The notes beneath the pieces are model-generated. The model was not told the origin of the DNA. It worked only from the letters and a program-made list of their open reading frames with translations, and searched no databases. This document shows, in pieces, positions 4,776-20,831 of a stretch of DNA of 64,000 nucleotides; position 1 is the stretch's first letter; each line of letters opens with the position of its first letter. The translations under genes and the position numbers were made by a program. Source of the DNA: a bacterium (lineage in GTDB: Bacteria > UBA8248); assembly GCA_965200245.1 (NCBI GenBank), contig CBDATS010000004.1:416001-480000 (forward strand), in the 5' to 3' direction.

Positions 4776-5533
4776 ACAGCGTAGAAATCATCCCAGTCAC
4801 CGGTTTGCCGGAAATCAAGGAGGGTGACGCGCTCGCCCACTTGATCCTGAATGCACTCGAAGCAGACGGTGTGAAAATACAGGATCGGGACATCCTTGTC
4901 CTCGCTCAAAAGATCATCAGCAAGGCCGAGGGCAGGGTTTTGGACCTGAAAAGCATCGAACCTTCCCGGGAAGCGCTGGAAATCGCCAATCGCGACGGGC
5001 GCGACCCCAGACTGGTGGAAGCGGTGCTCGGTGAGTCGAACGAGATCGTCGCCGCTTCTGAACGGGCACTCATCGTCGAGCATCGCTCAGGGGCAGTATG
5101 CGCCCATGCGGGAATAGACCGCTCAAACTTAAGAGGCGGCAAAGATGAGGTACTGCTTCTGCCCCGTGACGCCGACCTCTCCGCCAGGGAACTCCATCAA
5201 GAAATGAAAAGCGCGGCGAACGCATTCGTTCCCGTCCTTATCGCAGACACACAGGGGCGCGCGTTCCGGCGGGGCGTTGTCGGCGTGGCGATAGGGTGCG
5301 CAGGCCTTGAGCCTCTTGTGGACCTGAGAGGAGAGAAAGACCGTAGCGGCCGTATGCTTGAGATTACCATACTCGCGCACGCAGATGAAATCGCGGCGGC
5401 GGCCAGCCTCGTGATGGGACAGGACAAGCAGGGGGTTCCCGCCGTCTTGATTCGCGGGCTGGACTACCATGAGGGCAACGCTCCCGCGCGTTCGCTTTAC
5501 CGAAAGAAAGAAGAAGACCTGTTTCGCCCATGA
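4772..5533 (+). CDS. cofE: F420-0:L-glutamate ligase CofE (no fused nitroreductase)
   Basis: GLPEIKEGD, QKIISKAEGR, AGIDRSN, DTQGRAFRRG, DEIAAAASLVMGQ. Confidence 0.95.
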   Translation: MNSVEIIPVTGLPEIKEGDALAHLILNALEADGVKIQDRDILVLAQKIISKAEGRVLDLKSIEPSREALEIANRDGRDPRLVEAVLGESNEIVAASERALIVEHRSGAVCAHAGIDRSNLRGGKDEVLLLPRDADLSARELHQEMKSAANAFVPVLIADTQGRAFRRGVVGVAIGCAGLEPLVDLRGEKDRSGRMLEITILAHADEIAAAASLVMGQDKQGVPAVLIRGLDYHEGNAPARSLYRKKEEDLFRP

Positions 5534-6335: not shown

Positions 6336-6592
6336 AGGGCAAAATGTCTTGAATACGAGCCGTACTAATAAGAGGAAATGCGTGTTTTGTGTATTTTTAT
6401 GCAGAATTCTGATTTTGTTGATTGTCAAAGTGAAGATAATTCGGTAACATACAGAAAATAATGGGGTTGTGGGCAATGTAGATAACCTTGGCGTCTACAG
6501 GATCCAAACGATTCGCTCACCGGCCCGAAATTTCCCGGATTCGCCGAACGTTACAGACCGCCCTTTCGACAACACGGACCAGGGCTCAACTT

Positions 6593-7879
6593 ATGTGGGG
6601 CGTTACCCAACCGACCTTGAACTTCATCCAGAACTTCTCCTGGAACCATATGATCGATATCGGGTTCATGTGGTTCCTGCTGTATCAGGTTTACATCCGC
6701 TTCAAGGGCACTCAGGCGATGCGCCTTCTCGTGCGTGTGTTCGGAGTGTGGCTCGTCTACCTCGCCTCGCAGGCCGCGGGCCTGCACCTGACCTCGTTCC
6801 TGCTGTGGGCTATCTGGATCGCCGTCCTCATCTTGTTTCTCATCAATTTCCACGGGGAAATCCAGAAGATATTCTTCCAGCTCAACCCGATGCGCAGATT
6901 CTCCACCCTTTTTCGCCGTGCGATGCGCATCCGCCTGCCGGACGAAAGTATCACTACCATCGCCCAATCCGTTTTTTCGCTCGCGGCGAAACAAATGGGC
7001 GCGATCATCGTCGTGGAGCAACGGGATTTAACCGATTCCCTGCTAAGAAGTCCTGGTGAAGAGATTGAAGCGGATATCCAGCTGGCCCTGTTGGAAACCA
7101 TCTTCTTCAAGGGAGCACCCTACCACGACGGTGCCGCCATAGTCCGAAAGAACAAGGTCTCGCGCGTGGGATGTGTTTTGCCCCTTTCCGAAAACCATGC
7201 CCTGCCGGCGGAGTTCGGCACGCGCCACAGGGCGGCAGTGGGTATCACGGAGCGATGCGACGCCCTGGCGATCGTCATATCTGAAGAACGTGGAGAGGTC
7301 ACCTGCGTGGAAGGCGGCCAAATCAAGGCGATGCAGAACAAAGACGAACTCTCCTCCTGGCTTATGGCGCGGCAGCGCGCGGCCCGTGAGGCGGGGCAGA
7401 CGAAAGGGCGCGTATCAATCGGCAATCTTTTCGAGAACTGGCGGCCCAAGCTTGCCGCACTGGCTGCCGTCATATTCCTGTGGTCGCTCGTCGGGCAGGA
7501 ACACCAAAACCCGCAGAACTTCTTCCCGCAACTCGAAAGCAAGGTGGAAGAGGAATTCCGCGTACCAGTGCATTACTACAACATCCCGAACGGGGTCGTC
7601 CTGCCGGCCGATGTGTCGAAAGAAGTCACAATTCGCCTGAGAGGCAGGCGAGATATCCTCAATTACATCGACCCTACACGTCTGCGCGTAAACGTGAACC
7701 TGGCCCAAATGACGCCGGGTGCGCATTCGCGCACGCTCACGGGCCGTGACATCGATCTCCCGAGCGGTCTTGAATTCCTAGGCGCGGAACCGAAAACTGT
7801 GGAGGTGAACCTCGGAGAAGTACCAAAGCCCGAGAAAATGACGAAATCGAGTGCCTCCACCGAGACACCCGATTCCTGA
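6593..7879 (+). CDS. cdaA: Diadenylate cyclase CdaA/DacA fused to a TM helix and a YbbR (CdaR-like) domain
   Basis: Three N-terminal TM helices, GAIIVVE, YHDGA, GTRHRAAVG, ISEERG; C-terminal VPVHYYNIP..VTIRLRG YbbR-like segment; start uncertain. Confidence 0.88.
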   Translation: MWGVTQPTLNFIQNFSWNHMIDIGFMWFLLYQVYIRFKGTQAMRLLVRVFGVWLVYLASQAAGLHLTSFLLWAIWIAVLILFLINFHGEIQKIFFQLNPMRRFSTLFRRAMRIRLPDESITTIAQSVFSLAAKQMGAIIVVEQRDLTDSLLRSPGEEIEADIQLALLETIFFKGAPYHDGAAIVRKNKVSRVGCVLPLSENHALPAEFGTRHRAAVGITERCDALAIVISEERGEVTCVEGGQIKAMQNKDELSSWLMARQRAAREAGQTKGRVSIGNLFENWRPKLAALAAVIFLWSLVGQEHQNPQNFFPQLESKVEEEFRVPVHYYNIPNGVVLPADVSKEVTIRLRGRRDILNYIDPTRLRVNVNLAQMTPGAHSRTLTGRDIDLPSGLEFLGAEPKTVEVNLGEVPKPEKMTKSSASTETPDS

Positions 7880-9187: not shown

Positions 9188-9661
9188 TCAGTAGGAAACC
9201 TTCTCTTCCATCTGCGCCCACAGATTAAAGGTTTCCAGTGCTTCATCTTTCAGGAGTCGAGTTGCTTCGAGCTTTCTTTCGCCAACCGGCAGGGAGATTT
9301 CCTTGTAGAGAAATTCATCGGAAAACCCGATTGCATCGGCTTCGACGATGGTGTTCCCGTAATACATTTTCTCGATTCTCGCCCAGTAAATGGCGCTCAG
9401 ACACATCGGGCACGGCTCGCAACTTGTGTATATCTCACAACCTGACAAATCGAAATTTTTCAGTTTCGCGCTCGCCGCCCGAATGGCGAGCATCTCGGCG
9501 TGAGCGGTGGGATCGCAAGAAGACGTCACCCGGTTCGCACCTTCGCCGATAATCTCACCGTGCTTGACGACAACGGACCCGAAGGGCCCGCCGTGCCCCT
9601 CCCTCACGTTCTGGGATGCGATCGCTATCGCCCTTCTCATGAAAGATTCCGAATTCGTCAT
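9188..9661 (-). CDS. guaD: Guanine/nucleoside deaminase (cytidine deaminase fold)
   Basis: GGPFG, DPTAHAE, SCEPCPMCLSAIYWA, GFSDEFLY. Confidence 0.85.
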   Translation of the reverse strand: MTNSESFMRRAIAIASQNVREGHGGPFGSVVVKHGEIIGEGANRVTSSCDPTAHAEMLAIRAASAKLKNFDLSGCEIYTSCEPCPMCLSAIYWARIEKMYYGNTIVEADAIGFSDEFLYKEISLPVGERKLEATRLLKDEALETFNLWAQMEEKVSY

Positions 9662-9862: not shown

Positions 9863-10768
9863 ATGATGAAAATCGGATTTATCGGACTGGGAAAAATGGG
9901 AGCCGGCATGGCGGCCAACCTCCAGAGGGCGGGCTATGAACTCATCGTCCACGATATCGTGCGTGATGCGGCGGTGGAGCACATCAAGCGCGGCGCGCTG
10001 TGGGCAGAGACCCCCGCAGAGATGGCTCGCGCGTGTGAAATCATCTTCACTTCTCTGCCCGGTCCCACAGAAGTCGAGAACGTAGCCACGGGGCCGAACG
10101 GAATTCTCGAGGGCATCGGCGCACGAAAAGTCTACATCGACCTGAGCACGGGATACCCCGCAATCATCCGCAGAATTCATGAGAAATTCACGGAAACAGG
10201 CGCACACATGCTCGATGCCCCCGTAAGCGGCTCCACCATAGGCGCGAACACGGGGCGCCTGGCCATTATGGTGGGGGGTGAGGAGGAGGTTTTTGAACGC
10301 TGCAAGCCCCTTTTCGATGCCATCGGCGATCAGCCTACCTACACCGGACCGGTCGGAACGGGCACCGTGTGCAAACTCGCGCACAACTGCCTGGGCTACG
10401 GCATTCAGGCCATTGCGGCGGAGTGCTACTCCCTCGGCGTCAAGGCGGGCGCAGCTCCCGAGGTTTTGGCTGAAACTATTCGAAACGGGGCGGTAGGTAG
10501 AGGAGTGCACTTCCACTACATCTTCCCCGACACTTTCTTCAAAGGAAAATTCGACGATCCCCACTTTCCCATCAAGGGCGCGGTGAAAGACGTGAGCCTC
10601 GCGCTCCAGCTCGCTCGTGAGCACGACGTGCCCATGACGATAGGAAACATCGCCCACGGGGAGCTCGTCACGGGCTTGAACCGCGGCTGGGGAGAGGATG
10701 ACGCGAGGCGTGCCATGACGCTACAGGAAGAGCGGGCGGGCGGTGTAAAGATGAGAATTTCAGAATAG
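9863..10768 (+). CDS. NAD(P)-dependent beta-hydroxyacid dehydrogenase (3-hydroxyisobutyrate dehydrogenase family)
   Basis: IGFIGLGKMG, DAPVSG, CKLAHN, KDVSLA. Confidence 0.9.
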   Translation: MMKIGFIGLGKMGAGMAANLQRAGYELIVHDIVRDAAVEHIKRGALWAETPAEMARACEIIFTSLPGPTEVENVATGPNGILEGIGARKVYIDLSTGYPAIIRRIHEKFTETGAHMLDAPVSGSTIGANTGRLAIMVGGEEEVFERCKPLFDAIGDQPTYTGPVGTGTVCKLAHNCLGYGIQAIAAECYSLGVKAGAAPEVLAETIRNGAVGRGVHFHYIFPDTFFKGKFDDPHFPIKGAVKDVSLALQLAREHDVPMTIGNIAHGELVTGLNRGWGEDDARRAMTLQEERAGGVKMRISE

Positions 10769-10780
10769 GAGATAATTCAA

Positions 10781-11791
10781 GTGAAACACGGAATCGCCAT
10801 GCTGCCCCCTGCGCCTGATACCTACGCGCACTGGTGCCGACTCTCCGAGGAAGCAGGTTTTGACGTTATCTGGGTGCCGGACTCGCAGTCCCTCTACCGG
10901 GAACTTTACGTCTCATGCACTATCTGTGCGGCGAACACCACACGCGTCCTCCTCGGGCCGAACGTCACCAATCCGATGACGCGACACCCAGCGACGGCGG
11001 CGAGTGCCATTGCCACAGTGGACGAATTTTCAGGCGGCCGTGCGCTGTTCGGTATCGCGACAGGCGATAGCGCCGTCTTGAACCTGGGTCTACGCCCCGG
11101 TCGTGTGGACGAGATGCGCGATTACGTGCTCGCCATGCGCGGGATGCTCGAAGAGGGAATTGCCCATTACCAGGGAAAACCCTGCACCCTTAAGTGGCAT
11201 CAAAAGCGCATCCCGCTTTACATCGCCGCCGAGGGACCGCGCACCATCCGCCTGGCAGGCGAGATTGCAGACGGCGTCACCATCGGCACTGGCCTTACAC
11301 CTGAGGTGGTGGCGGACTCCCTCACCTGGCTGGAGGAAGGCGCGAGAAAATCGGGTCGAAAGCTGGACGATATCGACATCTGGTGGCTCGCCAAGGTGAA
11401 TGTGCTGGCAGACGGCGAGAGCGCCCGCGAGGAGATTCGCATGGCGTTGGCCGCGAGTGCGCACCATGCCTTTCGTTTCACTCTGGAGGACAAGCGGGTG
11501 CCTTGGGATCTTCGCTCCGCCGTCGAAACCCTCAAAAAGGAATATGCCTTTCATGAGCACGAGATGGTGGACAAGCAGACGAACGCCGAACTCGTGGACA
11601 GGCTCGGCCTTCGCGAATACCTGCTCGATCGCTTCGCCATCGCAGGCGACGCTGCGGAATGCGTGCAACGGCTCCACGAACTCGAAGCGACGGGTGTCGG
11701 GGCCTTGAGAATTGCCGCCCACGTGCACGACAAACCCGCATTTATCCGGACATGGGGCCGCGAGATAATCGGCGCAACCAAACAACCATAG
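10781..11791 (+). CDS. LLM-class (Mer-like), probably F420-dependent oxidoreductase, paralog 1
   Basis: WVPDSQ, VTNPMTRHP, GIATGDSA, AAEGPRT..LAGEIADG. Confidence 0.88.
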   Translation: MKHGIAMLPPAPDTYAHWCRLSEEAGFDVIWVPDSQSLYRELYVSCTICAANTTRVLLGPNVTNPMTRHPATAASAIATVDEFSGGRALFGIATGDSAVLNLGLRPGRVDEMRDYVLAMRGMLEEGIAHYQGKPCTLKWHQKRIPLYIAAEGPRTIRLAGEIADGVTIGTGLTPEVVADSLTWLEEGARKSGRKLDDIDIWWLAKVNVLADGESAREEIRMALAASAHHAFRFTLEDKRVPWDLRSAVETLKKEYAFHEHEMVDKQTNAELVDRLGLREYLLDRFAIAGDAAECVQRLHELEATGVGALRIAAHVHDKPAFIRTWGREIIGATKQP

Positions 11792-11802
11792 AGGACGCCT
11801 TT

Positions 11803-12804
11803 ATGAGACACGGTATTTCGTTCAGACCGCCCGATACGGATTCGTTCTCCCGCTGGTGTAAGTGCGCGGAAAAACTCGGCTTCGATGCGGTGTTCATACC
11901 CGACACACAATCCCTCTACCGGGAAGTCTACGTCTCATGCGCGATATGCGCGATGGAGACGAGCGAGATCATATTCGGCCCGTGCGTCACGAATCCCGTC
12001 ACGCGCCATCCGGCGGTGGCTGCGAGTGCCATCGGCACCATCAGCGAGCTATCGGGCGGGCGCGCCTTCTGGGGAATCGCCACGGGTGACAGCGCGGTGT
12101 TGAACTTGGGGTTACGACCCGCGAAACTTGCCGAGATGCGCGAATACATTCTCGCGGTACGGGGGATGCTCGAAGAAGGAAGCACCGAGTACAAGGGGAG
12201 GCCCAACCGGCTGAGCTGGCATAATTCCCACATTCCGATTCACATCGCTGCAGAAGGCCCCAAGACGCTGCGCCTGGCAAGCGAGGTGGCAGATGGCGTC
12301 ATTATCGGAACAGGCCTCATTCCCGAAGTCATCGCTGACACGCTCTCCTTCATCGACGAGGGTGCCAGGAAGTCCGGTCGAAGGGTGGAGGATCTGGACC
12401 TCTGGTGGCTGGTAGACGCCCACGTGGATGCGGACGGCGAGCGCGCCCGCGAGGACATCCGCACCGCTCTCGCCGCAAGCGCGCATCACTCGTTCGCCTT
12501 CACGATGGAGAACAAGCGAGTCCCCAAAAAACTCGAGGCTGGCATCCGCGCGCTGAGAGATGGATACCAAACCTCCGAGCACGGCTTTATAGACAAATCG
12601 AACAACGCTGCGCTCGTGGACGAATTCGGCCTCAGGGAATATCTGGCAGAACGGTTTGCCATCGTCGGCACGCCCGGAGAATGCCGAAAGAGGATCGAAT
12701 ATTTGGAGAACCTGGGCGTCAAGGGGCTTCGCATCAACAACAACCTGCCCGACAGGACGGCCTTCATGAACACCTGGGCCATGGAGGTGAGAGGAATCGA
12801 ATGA
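11803..12804 (+). CDS. LLM-class (Mer-like), probably F420-dependent oxidoreductase, paralog 2
   Basis: FIPDTQ, VTNPVTRHP, GIATGDSA, AAEGPKT; RBS GAGGA; colinear with paralog 1. Confidence 0.88.
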   Translation: MRHGISFRPPDTDSFSRWCKCAEKLGFDAVFIPDTQSLYREVYVSCAICAMETSEIIFGPCVTNPVTRHPAVAASAIGTISELSGGRAFWGIATGDSAVLNLGLRPAKLAEMREYILAVRGMLEEGSTEYKGRPNRLSWHNSHIPIHIAAEGPKTLRLASEVADGVIIGTGLIPEVIADTLSFIDEGARKSGRRVEDLDLWWLVDAHVDADGERAREDIRTALAASAHHSFAFTMENKRVPKKLEAGIRALRDGYQTSEHGFIDKSNNAALVDEFGLREYLAERFAIVGTPGECRKRIEYLENLGVKGLRINNNLPDRTAFMNTWAMEVRGIE

Positions 12805-12879: not shown

Positions 12880-13333
12880 CCCTCGATTCGAGTGCGGCTC
12901 ATGAATCTTATAATCCCGTCAACTCCTCATATTTTGAGAGTTGCGCATCAGACATATGGAATTCCTTCATCTCAGCATAGGTTGCGGTTGTAAAATGCAT
13001 TGCATCCGCAGGCTACAAACTCCATCTCCGAGAGATACCTTTCTCTCATGAGACGCCTGGAATCTCGTTGTAAACGCTCATGCACTTCCACCAAGGTAAC
13101 GGCACGGCGATCCATCCACATCGAATCTATCTTGGCTTCAAGCACAGGGTTCCTGTGCCTGCCCCTTTCTATGGTGTCATACGCCACCTCGGCAATCGAC
13201 CACATGGATGTTACTATTTGACACTCACCTTGACGCGATTCTGACACTAACGCATTCAGGATGGGCAACCTGCTCTCTGCACATCGATATAAGGCAGAGA
13301 AACATCGGCATCCCAATAGTAAGTATCAGCCAT
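12880..13333 (-). pseudogene. Frameshifted PIN/VapC-like toxin gene
   Basis: MADTYYWDADV / ...IVTSMWSIAEVA... / WSL*PADAMHFTTA..EFHMSD; PIN acidic motifs spread over successive frame segments; start overlaps the upstream stop. Confidence 0.7.
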
Positions 13334-14096
13334 CACGCAACCGCCTAATCGTGACTTCTGGCAATTCCGCGTCTGGCTTCAACAGCAGAATTGCGCGCGC
13401 CTTCGTGTAGTCTCCTTCCTCCGAAATTGGTGTGATTTTACTGACTTGCCGAACTGCTATCGGGTGCCCATCGGCCGGGTTGCGATTCACCAGTCCTTCC
13501 ACGATAGCGTGTTTTCCCCAAACTTCCCTCATAATATCCTCTTGGCCTGATTGCAAATAACACGACACCGGCCGGTCAGCCAGAACGTCATAGAGGGTGA
13601 ATCGCAAAACGTTTCGCTTTGTTAATGTCTGGACTTCCCCCTCTACCGCGCCAAAAGCTACGGCCTTTACATTTCCGGGCAGATTTAAACTATTTTTCGC
13701 CGCCCTCGGCTTTCCTCCAGGAGGATTATTCAAGATTACCGTTTCCTCTTGCGTCTCGAACCGGATTCGTTTGACGCCATTTCCAACCAAGCGTCCAAGT
13801 TCCATCGCTGGGCGGGAAATTTTCCGTCCACGACCAATCTGGACATTCTCGCTAAGCGCTCTGCCAACGTCATTGTATCCACGTACTACCCGTTCGACCC
13901 TTTCCGATTGAGGGCTAGACCCTGTAATGGTCACCAATGCGCTCCCAGGCTGCAGGTCTTCGATCCGCCACTCGATACCATCCCCTTCCTCTGCTGTTAG
14001 CGCATGAACGAGGCTATGCAGTGATTTTACTGCGGTAGCGAAAGTCTCAAAGGTGACATCGCCTTCCAGCACCAGTGTAATCGTGTCAGGAGCCAT
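13326..14096 (-). CDS. Hypothetical protein (256 aa), putative partner or antitoxin of the PIN gene
   Basis: Intact ORF in an AT-richer patch, translationally coupled to the PIN remnant. Confidence 0.7.
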   Translation of the reverse strand: MAPDTITLVLEGDVTFETFATAVKSLHSLVHALTAEEGDGIEWRIEDLQPGSALVTITGSSPQSERVERVVRGYNDVGRALSENVQIGRGRKISRPAMELGRLVGNGVKRIRFETQEETVILNNPPGGKPRAAKNSLNLPGNVKAVAFGAVEGEVQTLTKRNVLRFTLYDVLADRPVSCYLQSGQEDIMREVWGKHAIVEGLVNRNPADGHPIAVRQVSKITPISEEGDYTKARAILLLKPDAELPEVTIRRLRDG

Positions 14097-14370
14097 TACT
14101 CGCCCCCATATTGGGTTTCCAGAGGATATGGAATGGATGGATATCCTAACCAGATATCAATATGCCTAAGCCCAAGGTTTTGAAATTGGCGGATCAATTA
14201 CTCAGTTCAGCCTAAAACAACCCCAAAATACAACACTGATTCGAGAAGCGGATGGAGTTGTCGCTGCAAAAACTCCCTATTCCCTTAGGCAAAACCTTCA
14301 GTTAGAATAGCACAAATGCTCGAAAAAATGAATTTGGCCTTCCCGAAAAACCTCGCAAAGGAGGGTGGAC

Positions 14371-14925
14371 ATGAGCGAAATGACGAAGGAGAAACAAAGG
14401 ATTCTCGTCTATGAGCCTGTGGCGGAGGCTTCGGGAGAGAACGCGGCCATGGCTACGCGGCCCGAGAGCCTGAACGGCAAAAGCGTCGGCCTCATCAACA
14501 ATACAAAGGATTTTACGGAAGAGATTTTCGATGTGATGGGTGCCGTGCTTGAAGAACAGTTTCCGGGTGTGCGAGTCGTACGCTACAGGAAGGAATCCGT
14601 GAGCGGTGCATCGCCCTCCCTCATGGAGCAGGTGGAGGGAGAGTGCGACGCTGTGGTCTCTGCGCTCGGCGACTGAGGCTCGTGCACATCGTGGAGTATC
14701 CACGACAGTGTCGCCTTCGAGAAAAGAGGGCTCCCCACGGTCACCATCGTCACCGACGCATTCGAGAACTACGCGAGGCAGCTTACCAGGCTCCACAAGA
14801 TGCGCGATCTTCCGCTCGTTACCCTCCCCCACCCCATTGCGGGCAGAAAGCGCGAGGAAGTGGATGCAATGTCCGCGAAGGCGAGCCCATATCTGATACC
14901 CGCCCTCACGCAGGCGAGCGGCTGA
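14371..14925 (+). CDS. UGSC-family selenoprotein (184 aa, Sec at codon 102, UxxC)
   Basis: RBS AAGGAGG; DAVVSALGD-TGA(14674-14676)-GSCTSWSIHDSVAFEKRGLPTV... open to TGA 14923-14925. Confidence 0.92.
14677..14715 (+). promoter_or_regulatory. SECIS-like hairpin 2
   Basis: GGC..CAC a TCGTGGA gta TCCACGA ca GTG..GCC directly 3' of the TGA. Confidence 0.78.
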
Positions 14926-14932
14926 TTTTTCC

Positions 14933-16033
14933 ATGAGTGAACCAAAGCACGCCCGCCAGATTGCACTTGATGAAGACACAGGAACAATATTCGACCATTT
15001 CTACGAGGAGGGTTGGACGGACGGGCTTCCCATCATCCCGCCGACCGAGGAACGCGTCGCTGAAACCATGCGTTTCACGGATTACGCGCCGCACGATGTC
15101 ATCGCCCACATTCCACCCAGAAACGCACCCGCGACAGTAGAACTCATCGCCATCAACGCCGTGATGGCGGGCTGCAGGCCAGAATACCTGCCCGTGCTTA
15201 TCACTGCGGTGCAGGCCATGACGGAGCCGGCTTATAACCTTTACGGTCGCCAGACGACCACCCATCCGGGTGCGCACATGATGATCGTCCACGGGCCGAT
15301 GAGAAACGAACTTGAGGTCAACTGCCGCCAGAACGTGTTCGGCCAAGGCCAGCGCGCGAACGCGACGCTTGGCCGCGGGGTGAGGCTCCTGATGATGAAC
15401 GTGGGCGGCGGCATCCCCGGTGTGACGGACATGGCCACCCACGGGCATCCTGGAAAATATTCCTACACCATCGGCGAGGATGAGGAAGGAAGCCCCTGGC
15501 CACCCTTTCACACGGGCAGGGGCCTAGCACCCGGGACTTCCGCCGTCACCATGCTCTGCGCCGAATCGCCCCACAACGTGAACGACCTCGTGAGCAAGAC
15601 ACCCCACAAATACCTGGGCACGGCGGCTTCAGCCATGAGCCACCTAGGTGCCAACGGCGTCTACCGAAGCGGGCTTCCAGGCGAGCAGATGCTGGTGCTG
15701 ACCGCCGAAGCTGCTAACTGGCTTTCGGATCAAGGGTGGACGAAGGCCGACGTATCCCAATTCATCTTCGAGAATGCGCGCCAGCCGATTCGCCTCATGC
15801 GAGACCGCGGCGGCTTCGGCATGACACCGCTCGCCCCTTTTGTGAATCTAGAAGAAGACGAGGAGATGGCCCCCATTGTCCCCAGCCCCGGAGGCATCCT
15901 CATCGTCATCGCAGGCGGTCATGGTCGCCACATGCAGGCCGTTCTCACGGCGAGCTACAACCTGAGCGTCACCAAAGCCGTCACCCGCAAAGACGGAACG
16001 CCGATTAAGTCCATGCGGGAGTTCGTGGAGTGA
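14933..16033 (+). CDS. Uncharacterised partner of the UGSC protein (DGLPxxPPT family)
   Basis: GWTDGLPIIPPTEERV, AINAVMAGC.P, RANATLGR, DMATHGHPGKY, EEGSPW; 7 nt after the UGSC stop. Confidence 0.85.
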   Translation: MSEPKHARQIALDEDTGTIFDHFYEEGWTDGLPIIPPTEERVAETMRFTDYAPHDVIAHIPPRNAPATVELIAINAVMAGCRPEYLPVLITAVQAMTEPAYNLYGRQTTTHPGAHMMIVHGPMRNELEVNCRQNVFGQGQRANATLGRGVRLLMMNVGGGIPGVTDMATHGHPGKYSYTIGEDEEGSPWPPFHTGRGLAPGTSAVTMLCAESPHNVNDLVSKTPHKYLGTAASAMSHLGANGVYRSGLPGEQMLVLTAEAANWLSDQGWTKADVSQFIFENARQPIRLMRDRGGFGMTPLAPFVNLEEDEEMAPIVPSPGGILIVIAGGHGRHMQAVLTASYNLSVTKAVTRKDGTPIKSMREFVE

Positions 16034-16069
16034 GGGGGATTACCAGATACCCAAGATATATGAATACCT

Positions 16070-16559
16070 ATGAATCTCTGCCAGATTTTCTTCCGAACCC
16101 ATAACCACCCGCGAACCCGGCTCCCAAGCCTTATAAATCCGTCAAAACAGGTGTTATGAGTTCTTTCGCTCCGAATGTTAAAAACAGCCACGACAAACCG
16201 AAACAAGCCAGCAAAGCGATTACCAAAACCGCAAAACCAAACCATTGACTACGTTTTTGGGGCTTTGTTTGAGAGGCCAATTTCTCTTTGGCGAACTAAA
16301 ACTCGTTCTCATTCCTTTTGCGTGCTCTTTCCAAACCGCTTTTCATGAGATCGTGTCGATCCTGCGGGCTTCAATCTCGCAATATCTCCGGATTAGCCCA
16401 AGGAGGCCCCTGATGTTCAGTGAATCGCAATCCGGGAATGTTTTGAGCCTGAGATATTTCTGCTACAGGATCGGGGTTGGATGGCATCAAGATTCCGGGG
16501 TCTTTGGAAGACTCGTCCGTTTTTTCGGCATCCATGTTTTCAGAGTCGGAATCGGTCAC
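16070..16559 (-). pseudogene. Decayed membrane protein gene (DUF2335-like)
   Basis: Fragments HQGPPWANPEILRD* and SQWFGFAVLVIALLACFGLSWLFL..*GLGAGFAGGYGFGRK broken by stops or frameshifts; AT-rich. Confidence 0.35.
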
Positions 16560-16881: not shown

Positions 16882-17570
16882 AATTTAAAATTAACCAGAA
16901 AGCTCTCCCCTATACATCCACGTTCATACGGAACTGGCCTGCGAGATGAGTGATGAACTTACCTGCGGCATCGCCGCTCTTCCAGCCGCGTGTATCCTCA
17001 GGGAGGGTTATAGTGAGTGAGGCCCTGGAGCCATGATGTGCAATTGCGGGAAAATGCGCACCTGGGCGAAAATCACGCCCCTTGGAAAAAAAAACGCGGG
17101 GCAATCTCTGGCCGCACGTTGACCGCGCCCTTGACTACCTGTAAACCCGTCCGTGAAAAACGATTCAAGTGAAGGCATAGTGTTCGAAATGTTCCTTTTG
17201 GAACCGAGCGCACACTACACACCCCGCATTTCCAGTGATAGGATATGGATTAGCTCATCCAACGCCCAGGATAGTTCTGGAGACGATTGGGGGGTTTCCC
17301 CCGCGAGGAATCCCTGTTTTCCTTGACTGAATAACTGGTTCCGCGCCCTTCGCGGCGCGAAACCATGCAAAGCAGATTGGTGCACGCGTCGGTTCATTAC
17401 GAATATGAAGCCCGAAGAAGTCGGATAAACTTCAACCGGGCACGGCGGGTCAGATGAAATTCCGCCCGCATCTTGAGGACAGCACCTGGTTCGGTGAGCG
17501 GATTATGCCGCAAACCAGAACAAAAACATTTCTCCGATTTTGCTCCAATTTTCAAAGGAGGTTCAAAAAG

Positions 17571-18860
17571 ATGAAACGCTTTGTGTTGGTCCTTTGGGCC
17601 GCGGCGATCATCCTGGCGCCGGGGGCCGCATTCGCGGCCCAGGCTCAGAAGATCGATACCGGAAACACAGCCTGGATTCTGACGTCGACCGCGCTCGTGC
17701 TGTTCATGACGCTTCCGGGCCTCTCGCTGTTCTATGGCGGTCTCGTGCGCGCAAAGAACGTACTCTCCGTGCTGATGCAGTGCTTCGCCATCGCCTGCGC
17801 GGTGTCGATCGTCTGGCTCGTCGTCGGCTACAGTCTCGTGTTCGAGTCGGGTAACGCCTTCATCGGCGGGCTGGGCAAGGCGTTCTTCGCGGGCGTGGGT
17901 GTGGAGTCGCTCTCGGGCAACATTCCCGAGACGGTTTTCGCCATGTTCCAACTCACCTTCGCCATCATCACGCCGGCCCTTATCGTGGGCAGCTTTGCCG
18001 AGCGGATGCGGTTCTCGGCCCTGTTCATCTTCTCCATCGCGTGGGTCATCCTCGTCTACGCGCCAGTGGCCCATTGGGTGTGGGGCGGCGGATGGCTCGG
18101 CGAGATGGGTGCGCTCGATTTCGCGGGCGGCACCGTGGTGCACATCAACTCAGGCATTGCGGCTCTGGTGGCCGCCATCCTCATCGGCCCGAGGCACGGC
18201 TTTCCCACGACGGCCATGCTGCCTCATAACCTGCCTATGGCAGTGACGGGTGCGGGTATCCTTTGGGTCGGCTGGTTCGGCTTCAACGCGGGTAGTGCAC
18301 TGGCAGCCGACGGCGCGGCGGGAATGGCCATGCTCGTGACCCACATGTCCTCGGCAGCGGGCGCGCTCGCCTGGATGTTCGCCGAGTGGATCAAGCACGG
18401 CAAGGCGAGCGTACTCGGCATCGTGACGGGCATGGTGGCGGGTCTAGTCGGCATTACGCCGGCCTCCGGCTTTGTGGGCCCTGTGGGCGCGCTGCTGCTC
18501 GGCGCGATAGCGGGCATTGGTTGCTTTGCAGCCACCAATTACATGAAACAGGTGCTCAAGATTGACGACTCGCTCGACGTGTTCACCGTGCACGGCGTGG
18601 GCGGCATCATTGGCGCGATACTGACCGGCGTGTTCGTCGCCAAGGGATTCGGCGGCGTCGGCCTTGCCGAGGGTGTTGGCATGGGCAAACAGGTTTGGAT
18701 CCAGTTTGTGAGCGTCATTGCCACGCTCGTCTATTCGGGCGTCGTCTCCTTCATCCTGTTCAAAATCGTGGACGCAATGGTGGGCCTGCGGGCCGACGCC
18801 AACGAGGAATCGGGCGGCCTTGACCTCATGATGCACAACGAATCAGCCTATGAACGCTAG
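17571..18860 (+). CDS. amtB: Ammonium transporter AmtB
   Basis: Signal peptide; LVLFMTLPGL, FQLTFAIIT, DFAGGTVVH, WFGFNAGS, DDSLDVFTVHG; RBS AAGGAGG. Confidence 0.97.
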   Translation: MKRFVLVLWAAAIILAPGAAFAAQAQKIDTGNTAWILTSTALVLFMTLPGLSLFYGGLVRAKNVLSVLMQCFAIACAVSIVWLVVGYSLVFESGNAFIGGLGKAFFAGVGVESLSGNIPETVFAMFQLTFAIITPALIVGSFAERMRFSALFIFSIAWVILVYAPVAHWVWGGGWLGEMGALDFAGGTVVHINSGIAALVAAILIGPRHGFPTTAMLPHNLPMAVTGAGILWVGWFGFNAGSALAADGAAGMAMLVTHMSSAAGALAWMFAEWIKHGKASVLGIVTGMVAGLVGITPASGFVGPVGALLLGAIAGIGCFAATNYMKQVLKIDDSLDVFTVHGVGGIIGAILTGVFVAKGFGGVGLAEGVGMGKQVWIQFVSVIATLVYSGVVSFILFKIVDAMVGLRADANEESGGLDLMMHNESAYER

Positions 18861-18986: not shown

Positions 18987-20831
18987 TTACGCCGAAGCGG
19001 CGGATTCTCGTATTCGCTCGAAAAACGCCTTGGCGTCATCAGGCAGGGATGTGAAGCGCAGCATCAATCTCGTCCCATTTGCCTCCACGACCTTTGCGTA
19101 GACATCTGAAACGTCGGCCTCACCCACGCGCAGCATGAGGTTCGCGTTCTTCCCGAAGGGGCTCTCAGACTCAAGTTCCATGCAATTCTCGGAAACCCGC
19201 CTGATTTCCGCCCCAGCCGCGTCTTCGGACACCTGCTTGCCCTCGACCGGAAAAATTCGCACGTTCACGGGTGATTCCAGGCACACAAAGGTCTCGGGAT
19301 CAGTTTCAGGCATCTCGCACGCATAAGGCCCTGTCATGCCCCGCACCTCGTAGACGCGAACAGGATATTCCAGACCCTTGAAACGCAAATCCTGTGTCTC
19401 GCCGATTTGTACGAACTCTACCATCTGCTCGTAGGTATCGGCGCTGATGAGCACCTGCCCGCTCACGGTGTAGGACTCGATTCGGTAGGCCATGTTGATG
19501 GGTGTACCCATTGCCCCGTATTTCGTGCGTTTTTCCGAACCGATATTACCGACGATAACCTCGCCCGTGTTGATGGCGATCCCCATGTGAAGGTCGGGCA
19601 TGCCATGCGCGCGCTGTTCTTCGTTGATCCCGACAAGGGCGCGCTGCATCTCCACGGCACAGGCCACCGCCCGGACCGAATCGTCGGGCGCAGCGAGCGG
19701 TGCTCCGAAAAAGGCGAGAATCCCGTCTCCCTGGAACTCGTCCACCGTGCCGTGGTATCTGGTGATAATGTCCACCGTCGGCTCCAAGAAGCGGTTCACC
19801 ACATTGATGACCTCATGCGGCTCAAGGCGTGAGGAAAGCGCGGTAAAACCCCGCAGGTCCGAGACAAGAAAGGTCACCTCGCGCACTTCGCCGCCGAGTT
19901 TCAGCCCGTCTGGTGAACTCAGGAGTTCGTCCACGATCTCCTTGCTGATGTAGCGCCCGAAGGTGTCGCGGATGAAATCGCGCTGCTTCAAGCCCTCGAT
20001 CATGCCTTCGAACGAGGTGGCCAAACGGCCCACCTCGTCGTGGCTCCTTTTCGCGGGAACGGTGACTTCGAGATTTCCCCTGCTCACCTCTTCCGCCGCG
20101 GAGGTCAGTTTCGTGAGCAGACGCAGCATACGTGAAGAGACGAGCCAGAACAGGATGAGACCCAGCGCGATCAAAATGATTGTGAAGCGTAGCAGTTTGA
20201 AGGTATTCGACCCCACCTGTTCGGCCACGGGATTCGCGATCTTGTTCAGCATCAGTATGGCCACCACCTTGCCGTTCAGCTTAAGCGGCGTGTTGAGTTG
20301 CAAGAACTGATCAAATTCCCGGTTCCCTACCTTTCCGCCAAAGAGTCGGGAGCGCATCATCTCGCCCTTGTTCCAGGTGTCGTTCGTTGCCTCATAGGTG
20401 GCAGGAAATGTCCGGTGAAGCTGGACATCCTGACCGATTTGGAACCCACCGTGCGCCGCGGCTACGTACTCGTAGCTGCCGTTGGGGCGTCTGCGCATGA
20501 TGATGGCATTGTCCACGCCCGAGATGCGCTTGATGCGCTGAAGTACAGCAAGTACTTCCCTGTACTCGGCCGTATTCTTGTCGGATTGAAGCCGCAGGCT
20601 GTGGACGGCTTCGGAATCTATCAAAACGGTACCCCGCTCGGCGAAGAACTCAAGCCTGGCCGAGAGCACATTGAGTTCGTAATTGTAACTCGACTGGTAG
20701 TACCTGTAGGACATCGGAACGATGGCGACGATGAGGATGAACAGGACGAGGATGAGGCTCTTGAAAACGATGGAACAGTAAAACCCATGCTTCGCCTGGG
20801 CTCTCGACTCTGGGTTGTCGGATTCGATCAT
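18987..20831 (-). CDS. Membrane class III adenylate/guanylate cyclase with periplasmic sensor, HAMP and C-terminal PilZ-like barrel
   Basis: Two TM helices, HAMP (DEVGRLA..F), SDLRGFT, FQGDG, GNIGSEKR, NMAYRIE. Confidence 0.9.
   Translation of the reverse strand: MIESDNPESRAQAKHGFYCSIVFKSLILVLFILIVAIVPMSYRYYQSSYNYELNVLSARLEFFAERGTVLIDSEAVHSLRLQSDKNTAEYREVLAVLQRIKRISGVDNAIIMRRRPNGSYEYVAAAHGGFQIGQDVQLHRTFPATYEATNDTWNKGEMMRSRLFGGKVGNREFDQFLQLNTPLKLNGKVVAILMLNKIANPVAEQVGSNTFKLLRFTIILIALGLILFWLVSSRMLRLLTKLTSAAEEVSRGNLEVTVPAKRSHDEVGRLATSFEGMIEGLKQRDFIRDTFGRYISKEIVDELLSSPDGLKLGGEVREVTFLVSDLRGFTALSSRLEPHEVINVVNRFLEPTVDIITRYHGTVDEFQGDGILAFFGAPLAAPDDSVRAVACAVEMQRALVGINEEQRAHGMPDLHMGIAINTGEVIVGNIGSEKRTKYGAMGTPINMAYRIESYTVSGQVLISADTYEQMVEFVQIGETQDLRFKGLEYPVRVYEVRGMTGPYACEMPETDPETFVCLESPVNVRIFPVEGKQVSEDAAGAEIRRVSENCMELESESPFGKNANLMLRVGEADVSDVYAKVVEANGTRLMLRFTSLPDDAKAFFERIRESAASA

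Follow-up and report, generated by a model that had tools for sequence, protein, structure and literature searches.

The 64,000 nt window analysed here (positions 416,001 to 480,000 of contig CBDATS010000004.1, assembly GCA_965200245.1, from a bacterium of the GTDB lineage UBA8248) carries, at 14371 to 16033 on the forward strand, a gene for a selenoprotein of the UGSC family followed directly by a gene for a 366 aa protein of a large, unnamed family, referred to below as the partner. The features of this gene pair, in window coordinates, are as follows.

14360..14364, + strand: ribosome-binding site GGAGG, read from the sequence, 6 nt 5′ of the UGSC start codon
14371..14925, + strand: UGSC-family selenoprotein gene, 184 codons including selenocysteine (Sec) 102; ATG at 14371, stop codon TGA at 14923-14925
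14674..14676, + strand: in-frame TGA, well supported as Sec codon 102 (U102), the first residue of the U-G-S-C motif
14683..14685, + strand: Cys105 codon, likely the resolving thiol of the UxxC motif
14687..14707, + strand: hairpin of the selenocysteine insertion sequence (SECIS) type within the coding sequence, 7 bp here, loop GUA, beginning 11 nt past the UGA
14933..16033, + strand: partner gene, 366 aa; ATG at 14933, 7 nt past the UGSC stop codon
15020..15046, + strand: partner signature D30-G-L-P-x-x-P-P-T38 (here DGLPIIPPT, residues 30-38)
15173..15175, + strand: partner Cys81 codon (M-A-G-C motif), between helices 69-79 and 83-96
15353..15376, + strand: partner motif R141-A-N-A-T-L-G-R148
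15476..15478, + strand: partner Glu182 codon (E-x-E-E-x-S-P-W motif)

Read with Sec at its single in-frame TGA, the UGSC protein runs ...AVVSALGD-U-GSCTSWSIHDSVAFEKRGLPTVTIVT..., and the spacer to the partner gene is exactly 7 nt (14926-14932). The partner also contains the motifs TTTHP (residues 108-112), DMATHGHPGKY and EEGSPW..H. All of these elements, on which the original prediction for this locus was based, are present with coordinates exact to the base. A scan of 14050-16500 for promoters and terminators gave no more sites than were found in shuffled sequence.

Both family models place the first protein in the UGSC family. When read with Sec it scores 144 bits (cut-off 125) against NCBIfam NF041046, 'UGSC family (seleno)protein', and 163.6 bits (cut-off 25) against Pfam PF24696, covering profile positions 2-171 of 172. 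The motif in the window copy is G-D-U-G-S-C-T-S-W-S (residues 100-109). This genome has seven UGSC copies, all with a single TGA, located at the same column. In other genomes 74 UGSC matches lie next to partner genes, and in these that column holds TGA in 64, Cys in five, Gln in one and a gap in four. The motif reads uGSC in 56 of the 74, and the variants uGSS (two) and uGTS (one) lack an equivalent of Cys105. In an alignment of 65 hairpin regions, 83.4% of cells were paired, compared with 75.6% after shuffling (none of 500 shuffles reached the observed level), and one pair swaps in a compensatory manner between C-G (35 sequences) and G-C (28); as the region is coding, part of this conservation reflects constraint on the protein. 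The machinery for Sec insertion (tRNA-Sec, selA, selB and selD) is encoded in the genome. The family-model scores, the conserved TGA column, the conserved hairpin and the Sec genes together make it well supported that the TGA at 14674-14676 is decoded as Sec and is not a chance stop codon.

The selD gene (G000:C8:72779-73741) also has a single in-frame TGA, which makes selenophosphate synthetase a probable selenoprotein of this organism as well. One further UGSC/partner pair of the genome looks degraded (G000:C4:1133816-1135389; L006, L010, L029): its UGSC reads U-G-S-S, the resolving Cys being gone, and its partner copy needs an N-terminal frameshift, with DGLP in one frame and the remainder in another, which could be due to decay or to an assembly error. 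A pair with the TGA form of UGSC was also found binned to an archaeon (L044, a contig titled Candidatus Nitrosocosmicus metagenome-assembled genome (MAG)), which may reflect transfer or an error in binning.

UGSC and its partner form a real module, a single two-gene unit. In a scan of one genome per species, 566 partner relatives were found and 79 loci were kept, with hosts in the Beta- and Alphaproteobacteria, Methylomirabilota, Binatia, Chloroflexota, Poribacteria, Entotheonella, Nitrospinota, Acidobacteriota and others. In 64 of these loci a UGSC match is found within 1.5 kb of the partner and in the same orientation, corresponding to 69 of their 87 partner domains. At the 69 paired domains either gene may come first (UGSC in 32, partner in 37) and the median gap is 109 nt. 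The other 18 partner domains are without an adjacent UGSC; 15 of the 79 loci have no such match, and in two of these (L037, L101) the contig or stretch begins right at the partner. In the genome studied here, six of the seven UGSC copies adjoin a partner gene or are fused in frame with one. Behind the seventh come two enoyl-CoA hydratase genes and one acyl-CoA dehydrogenase gene, and four partner genes in an array are found at a distance of 2.7 kb from it. Of 61 related genomes, which are not independent samples, 39 yielded both families and the remaining 22 yielded neither. This genome has more partner than UGSC copies (13 against seven), and relatives carry 1-19 partner and 2-9 UGSC copies.

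Gene fusions connect the two families as well. Among the best 150 partner relatives, 72 proteins are longer than 400 aa, and PF24696 is present in 49 of these, either N- or C-terminal to the partner domain. About 19 fusions have a whole UGSC domain ahead of the partner domain, about 25 retain only the UGSC part downstream of the Sec column, as gene callers that resume behind a UGA would produce, and in four the partner domain precedes the first half of UGSC and the protein ends at the Sec column. The two-component unit proposed in the original prediction is therefore borne out by adjacency, by fusions in both orders and by complete co-occurrence, and the paralog counts that it had called for are those given above. 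An in-frame fusion of 535 codons, with the motif U-G-G-C, is also present in this genome at C4:1246524-1248128, with a separate partner gene directly following it (C4:1245486-1248128; L007, L019, L026).

The partner family is large and without a name. The window copy has no Pfam or NCBIfam match at E ≤ 0.1, no match in the PDB by sequence or by profile, and no usable match in the ESM Atlas when the search was restricted to named clusters. A Pfam search with 39 family members (alignment A5) at E ≤ 10 gave no shared family, and no Fumerase match. Relatives are plentiful: in a 90%-clustered collection 7703 of 8000 scored candidates match, all of them unnamed or 'hypothetical', and among clusters at 50% identity 5147 match at E ≤ 0.001, 1236 of these at E ≤ 1e-30. 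The other copies in this genome share 34-44% identity with the one in the window.

A small set of residues is retained across the family. Residues D30, G31, L32, P33 and P37 are invariant in alignment A1. Conservation was also counted in the 87 partner domains of the 79 loci and, separately, in those proteins that have a residue at the column (about 276 proteins, which are not independent, many of them being close relatives of the query). Arg148 and Glu182 are each present in 87/87 domains and 276/276 proteins, Asp30 in 86/87 and 271/273, and Arg141 in 86/87 and 245/276. Cys81, the sole conserved Cys of the family, is found in 84/87 domains and 265/275 proteins. The excess of partner copies over UGSC copies, the 18 unpaired domains and the conservation of Cys81, Arg148 and Glu182 all point to the partner as the enzyme of the pair.

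The AlphaFold2 (AF2) model of the partner (mean predicted local distance difference test score (pLDDT) 84.6, predicted template-modelling score (pTM) 0.87) showed no clear solved relative in Foldseek and VIA searches, and its fold is not claimed to be new. The best Foldseek matches are class I fumarate hydratases, at E 3.4e-4 but with a template-modelling (TM) score of 0.29 and a root-mean-square deviation of about 16 Å. By VIA, the fumarate hydratase chains 7xky_A (alpha chain) and 6mso_A gave Z scores of 5.2 (over 185 residues) and 4.7; values of 4.7-5.2 over 177-185 aligned residues are below the level that shows kinship. The top VIA score in a wide search was Z 6.2, on 76 residues of an encapsulin. 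Class I fumarate hydratases share with the partner family this best structural match and a carboxylate-type genomic context, but they bind their cluster with three Cys ligands where the partner has one conserved Cys, and the likeness is treated as a lead only.

Partner genes also occur in tandem arrays without UGSC, three in L073:3126-6274 and four in this genome at C4:1230169-1234642. Six proteins of about 710 aa contain two partner domains each (P0127, P0133, P0139, P0191, P0192, P0268).

The AF2 model of UGSC is of high confidence (pLDDT 94.1) and consists of five consecutive beta-alpha units in (beta-alpha)5 order, with U102 located between the strand 94-100 and the helix 103-118, at the helix N-terminus. 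Its structural neighbours in PDB searches are generic chains resembling CheY, flavodoxins and cobalamin-binding domains. No thioredoxin is among the structural matches listed, although the listing alone does not exclude a thioredoxin fold. UGSC thus models as a flavodoxin-like domain, which does not agree with the 'likely Trx-like fold' put forward in 2008.

A resemblance of UGSC to the Sec segment of the glycine/betaine and proline reductase proteins GrdB and PrdB had been proposed, and this was upheld by profile-profile comparison. Alignment of a profile of eight UGSC sequences with the four GRDB-family proteins of this genome using hhalign gave a probability of 75% and E 2.5e-5 for 70 columns, in which the two Sec positions coincide, E-(K/R)-x-G-(I/L)-P-T aligns with E-R-E-G-I-P-T, and H-P aligns with H-P. 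The spacing from Sec to the G-(I/L)-P-T-V strand is identical in the two profiles. The real pair scored 38-41, compared with 10.8 and 10.9 for two reversed controls and at most 31.7 for 20 shuffles in 8-column blocks. UGSC matched only PF24696 at E ≤ 0.1 and stayed below the GRDB model PF07355, and a genome-wide search with PF07355 recovered four loci, all distinct from the seven UGSC loci. The partner resembles neither GrdE/PrdA nor the N-terminal part of GrdB: hhalign gave a probability of 0.2 both against the GRDB profile and against the GrdE of this genome.

UGSC is therefore probably a distant relative of the Sec-bearing part of GrdB and PrdB and may work alike. In both, a strand is followed by Sec at the start of a helix and then by a strand with E-x-x-G-(I/L)-P-T-V; Sec is far commoner than Cys in the two families, and a second, larger subunit is encoded alongside. 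PrdB-like forms also have a Cys three residues past the Sec. They differ in that UGSC, at 184 aa, aligns with no more than about 70 columns in the C-terminal part of GrdB, and in that its neighbour has no match to the pyruvoyl proprotein family of GrdE and PrdA (PF09338). A separate, canonical GrdE-GrdB pair is present elsewhere in the genome (C5:575896-578649; L020, L032). With UGSC short of the GRDB model and a partner that resembles neither GrdB nor GrdE, the two genes together do not make up a Grd/Prd system.

The GrdB of the canonical pair reads U-G-T-G, with no Cys after the Sec. Three PrdB-like proteins of about 270-300 aa with U-x-x-C are also encoded, at C8:244819-245787 (L021), C4:784596-785606 (L022) and C4:1532007-1532960 (L023), and no GrdE/PrdA gene was found beside any of them.

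Clues to the substrate come from the neighbouring genes, for which 783 open reading frames (ORFs) from the 79 loci were clustered. The commonest neighbours were TctC receptors (nine loci), short-chain dehydrogenases/reductases (SDR; eight) and CoA-transferase III (seven), followed by luciferase-like monooxygenases, SBP_bac_5 proteins and FMN dehydrogenases (five each) and by enoyl-CoA hydratases and acyl-CoA dehydrogenases (four each). The order partner, UGSC, CoA-transferase III, with very short gaps, recurs at four loci (L035, L093, L100, L110) and at the C8 locus of this genome (L024). Acyl-CoA genes lie within 2.5 kb of four of the nine UGSC/partner loci of this genome, where random placement gave a mean of 0.94 and reached four in 203 of 20,000 trials. 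The closest orthologs of the window pair are found beside TctC and enoyl-CoA hydratase genes (L034) and beside xanthine-dehydrogenase-family and enoyl-CoA hydratase genes (L033). These contexts, along with an Arg148 that is invariant and an Arg141 that is nearly so, suggest, with low confidence, that the substrates could be small carboxylates or CoA esters.

A larger cluster, with members in 21 loci, was rejected as an antisense artefact, as its representative's coordinates place it on the opposite strand over the partner and UGSC genes. In three loci from Binatia and a related MAG (L056, L060, L075), a gene for a DSBA-like thioredoxin-domain protein (PF01323, about 200 aa) is located immediately upstream of the pair in divergent orientation.

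Links to electron donors come from fusions of the partner and from a neighbouring gene in other organisms. The partner domain was found joined to AhpC/TSA-redoxin domains with a CxxC motif (P0250, P0261), to the catalytic chain of a ferredoxin-thioredoxin reductase (P0205) and to a thioredoxin reductase with a CAVC site (P0158). In Candidimonas nitroreducens (L100) the gene order is partner, UGSC (Cys form), CoA-transferase III and a 343 aa Pyr_redox_2 protein. The presence of these redoxin and reductase modules as fusions or neighbours makes a redox role the most economical reading, and the fusions suggest that UGSC may be replaceable by an ordinary disulfide reductant.

The pair is accordingly best read, at somewhat less than an even chance, as a reductase driven by a selenol and a thiol, with the partner as the substrate-specific enzyme and UGSC as its dedicated redox subunit. 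The partner would supply a pocket formed by the invariant Arg148 and Glu182 and the near-invariant Asp30 and Arg141, with Cys81 at a helix start. UGSC would be a minimal flavodoxin-like domain that holds Sec102 where a helix begins and Cys105 one turn further along. In the catalytic cycle proposed, Cys81 of the partner or an adduct with the substrate would become oxidised and be attacked by the Sec102 selenolate; Cys105 would then resolve the intermediate, leaving a Se-S bond, which would be re-reduced by a donor of the thioredoxin reductase or ferredoxin-thioredoxin reductase type. The substrate is probably a small carboxylic acid or a CoA thioester, and paralogs probably differ in substrate. 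This scheme builds on the pairing, the fusions, the Sec decoding, the conserved residues and the local likeness to GrdB, all of which are observed; from them we infer that the two proteins touch, which way electrons move, what Cys81 does and which class of substrate is used.

Methionine sulfoxide reductases, arsenate reductase and PAPS (3′-phosphoadenosine 5′-phosphosulfate) reductase, which work with dedicated redoxins, are among the closest known systems. These thioredoxin-dependent single-Cys reductases share with the partner one conserved Cys at a helix start, and with the pair as a whole a UxxC or CxxC companion and fusion of the enzyme to redoxin and thioredoxin reductase modules. They differ in that the partner has no sequence relation or clear fold relation to them, that UGSC models as flavodoxin-like and not as a thioredoxin fold, and that Sec is the rule.

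Several observations weigh against the proposed reductase scheme. Cys81 is not invariant, and the pairs L079 (Ala81) and L078 (Gly81) retain Sec in UGSC without it, which fits Sec acting directly on a substrate. Sec outnumbers Cys at the key column by 64 to five in the matches from other genomes, and a Global Ocean Sampling (GOS) survey gives 255 Sec to 21 Cys forms for UGSC and 235 to 110 for PrdB. Ordinary redoxins do not typically show such a bias, whereas PrdB, with Sec as its catalytic nucleophile, does. Neither Cys nor Sec is present in the UGSC domain of some fused forms (P0129, P0131, P0178, P0238), so that not all members of the family can rely on redox chemistry. Neighbouring or fused thioredoxin reductases are rare, no third gene is conserved in the 79 loci (each neighbour family occurs in nine at most), and the window pair itself has no adjoining acyl-CoA gene. 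Weighing the links to electron donors against the predominance of Sec, the pairs without Cys81 and the fused forms without Cys, a selenoredoxin serving a reductase is ranked first and direct catalysis by Sec second.

In this second reading, which is the strongest of the alternatives although unlikely on balance, Sec102 would attack a substrate carbon held in the pocket of the partner, as in GrdB and PrdB, for reductive cleavage of a C-N, C-S or C-X bond next to a carboxylate or thioester. Cys105 would free the product by forming the Se-S bond, the partner would take the role of GrdE/PrdA, and Cys81 would be auxiliary. The Sec-on-Sec match above its controls, the excess of Sec over Cys here and in the GOS survey, and the retention of Sec in L078 and L079 all favour such a mechanism, and the neighbouring CoA-transferase III and acyl-CoA genes would provide activated alpha-carbons. 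It has to contend with a partner that has no Pfam match and does not resemble GrdE or GrdB, and with a UGSC that falls short of the GRDB model. Many partner copies have no UGSC, and thioredoxin-fold CxxC domains take its place in P0250 and P0261, which is easier to understand if UGSC is a reductant. Reductive C-N or C-S cleavage, the chemistry put forward in the original prediction, belongs to this second reading, and the exchanges with redoxin, ferredoxin-thioredoxin reductase and thioredoxin reductase modules favour the dedicated redoxin over it.

A non-redox role is improbable. The pair would then work as an isomerase or hydro-lyase whose substrates are carboxylates or acyl-CoAs that are unsaturated or substituted, with the selenolate or thiolate serving as a Michael-type nucleophile or as an acid/base, and a UxxC disulfide would be regulatory. 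Neighbours that include enoyl-CoA hydratases/isomerases, MaoC dehydratases, FAA hydrolase, MmgE/PrpD and the DSBA-like genes are in keeping with this, as are the fumarate hydratases at the head of the Foldseek matches and in the VIA results, and the fused UGSC domains that carry neither Cys nor Sec. The structural matches lie under the level of a shared fold, however, UxxC at a helix N-terminus is a classical redox arrangement, and the thioredoxin reductase, ferredoxin-thioredoxin reductase and redoxin links of the partner indicate electron transfer.

Still less probable is a function in antioxidant defence or thiol repair, in which the partner would be a peroxidase-like or protein-repair enzyme whose reactive Cys81 is recycled by UGSC. 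The fusions to AhpC/TSA-redoxin domains could be taken in this way, the nearest ESM Atlas clusters are automatically named 'thiol-disulfide oxidoreductase' and 'thioredoxin (fragment)', and reviews place UGSC among the redox selenoproteins. On the other hand, 13 diverged paralogs, and up to 19 in relatives, suggest many substrates, the gene contexts are catabolic rather than those of stress loci, and Arg148, Glu182 and Arg141 suggest a small anionic substrate. Least likely is a composite metal or iron-sulfur site with Sec102, Cys105 and Cys81 as ligands and hydro-lyase chemistry as in the [4Fe-4S] class I fumarate hydratases: the top Foldseek matches, a CyuA chain in the VIA list, the exactly three conserved thiol/selenol ligands of the pair and the carboxylate and acyl-CoA contexts speak for it, but the structural matches are weak (TM 0.29, Z 5.2), each ligand is missing in some natural pairs (uGSS, uGTS, Ala81, Gly81), the redoxin and reductase fusions are left unexplained, and the 39 family members show no Fumerase match.

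A more far-reaching formulation, which we regard as doubtful when taken as a whole, is that the pair is a selenoenzyme of a new class, in which a minimal Sec domain of the GrdB type would dock on a catalytic subunit that has no solved relative, giving a composite active site of Sec102, Cys105, Cys81, Arg148 and Glu182. Driven by thioredoxin reductase or ferredoxin, this enzyme would reduce carboxylates or acyl-CoA thioesters, for example by removing an alpha-substituent or reducing an activated double bond via a C-Se intermediate, and its family would have branched into paralogs of differing substrate specificity, a dozen or more in each genome. If this were so, the class would reach phyla, and cultured proteobacteria, that lie well outside the anaerobes known for Grd/Prd chemistry. 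Among the hosts of the 79 loci are the cultured proteobacteria Candidimonas, Parapusillimonas and Vineibacter. These are aerobic heterotrophs, unlike the amino-acid-fermenting anaerobes.

UGSC has been in print since 2007 as a bioinformatically identified selenoprotein and is listed with 'function unknown' through a review of 2026. No assigned reaction was found in the papers retrieved, in agreement with the original prediction. The description of the system as undescribed holds in part: UGSC is already a named family (NF041046, PF24696), and the 2008 GOS paper notes its fusion to an 'Unknown_1' domain (Figure S1A), which may be the partner family described here. The papers retrieved yielded no mention of the gene pairing, the relation to GrdB, the flavodoxin-like model or the swaps with redox modules. 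What is new is the case for UGSC and a large unnamed family as one enzyme system, with a proposed electron path that can be tested and a probable class of substrate.

The almost constant association of UGSC with a single partner family gives a first concrete handle on the role of an abundant selenoprotein. With the partner linked to donors of the thioredoxin reductase and ferredoxin types and to acyl-CoA and carboxylate genes, the question can be taken to the bench, and the natural Cys forms in the cultured species Candidimonas nitroreducens and Parapusillimonas granuli make experiments feasible without a Sec insertion system. If Sec does act on carbon as in GrdB and PrdB, a rare chemistry would be extended well beyond the known anaerobes.

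The genes surrounding the pair in the window itself (two luciferase-like genes, a divergent pair and an ammonium transporter) are uninformative about its function. Upstream lie a fragment of an F420-0:gamma-glutamyl ligase gene (5015-5530), a diadenylate cyclase gene with DAC and YbbR domains (6488-7876), a cytidine deaminase-like gene on the minus strand (9191-9661), a gene for a 6PGDH-type NAD-binding dehydrogenase (9863-10765) and two luciferase-like monooxygenase genes with overlapping ORFs (10781-11788 and 11659-12801). Between the latter and UGSC, and divergent from it, are two minus-strand ORFs of 114 and 256 aa (12975-14096), neither of which has a Pfam match. Downstream of the partner gene are an ammonium transporter gene (17454-18857, plus strand) and a gene for a HAMP-adenylate/guanylate cyclase (18990-20831, minus strand).

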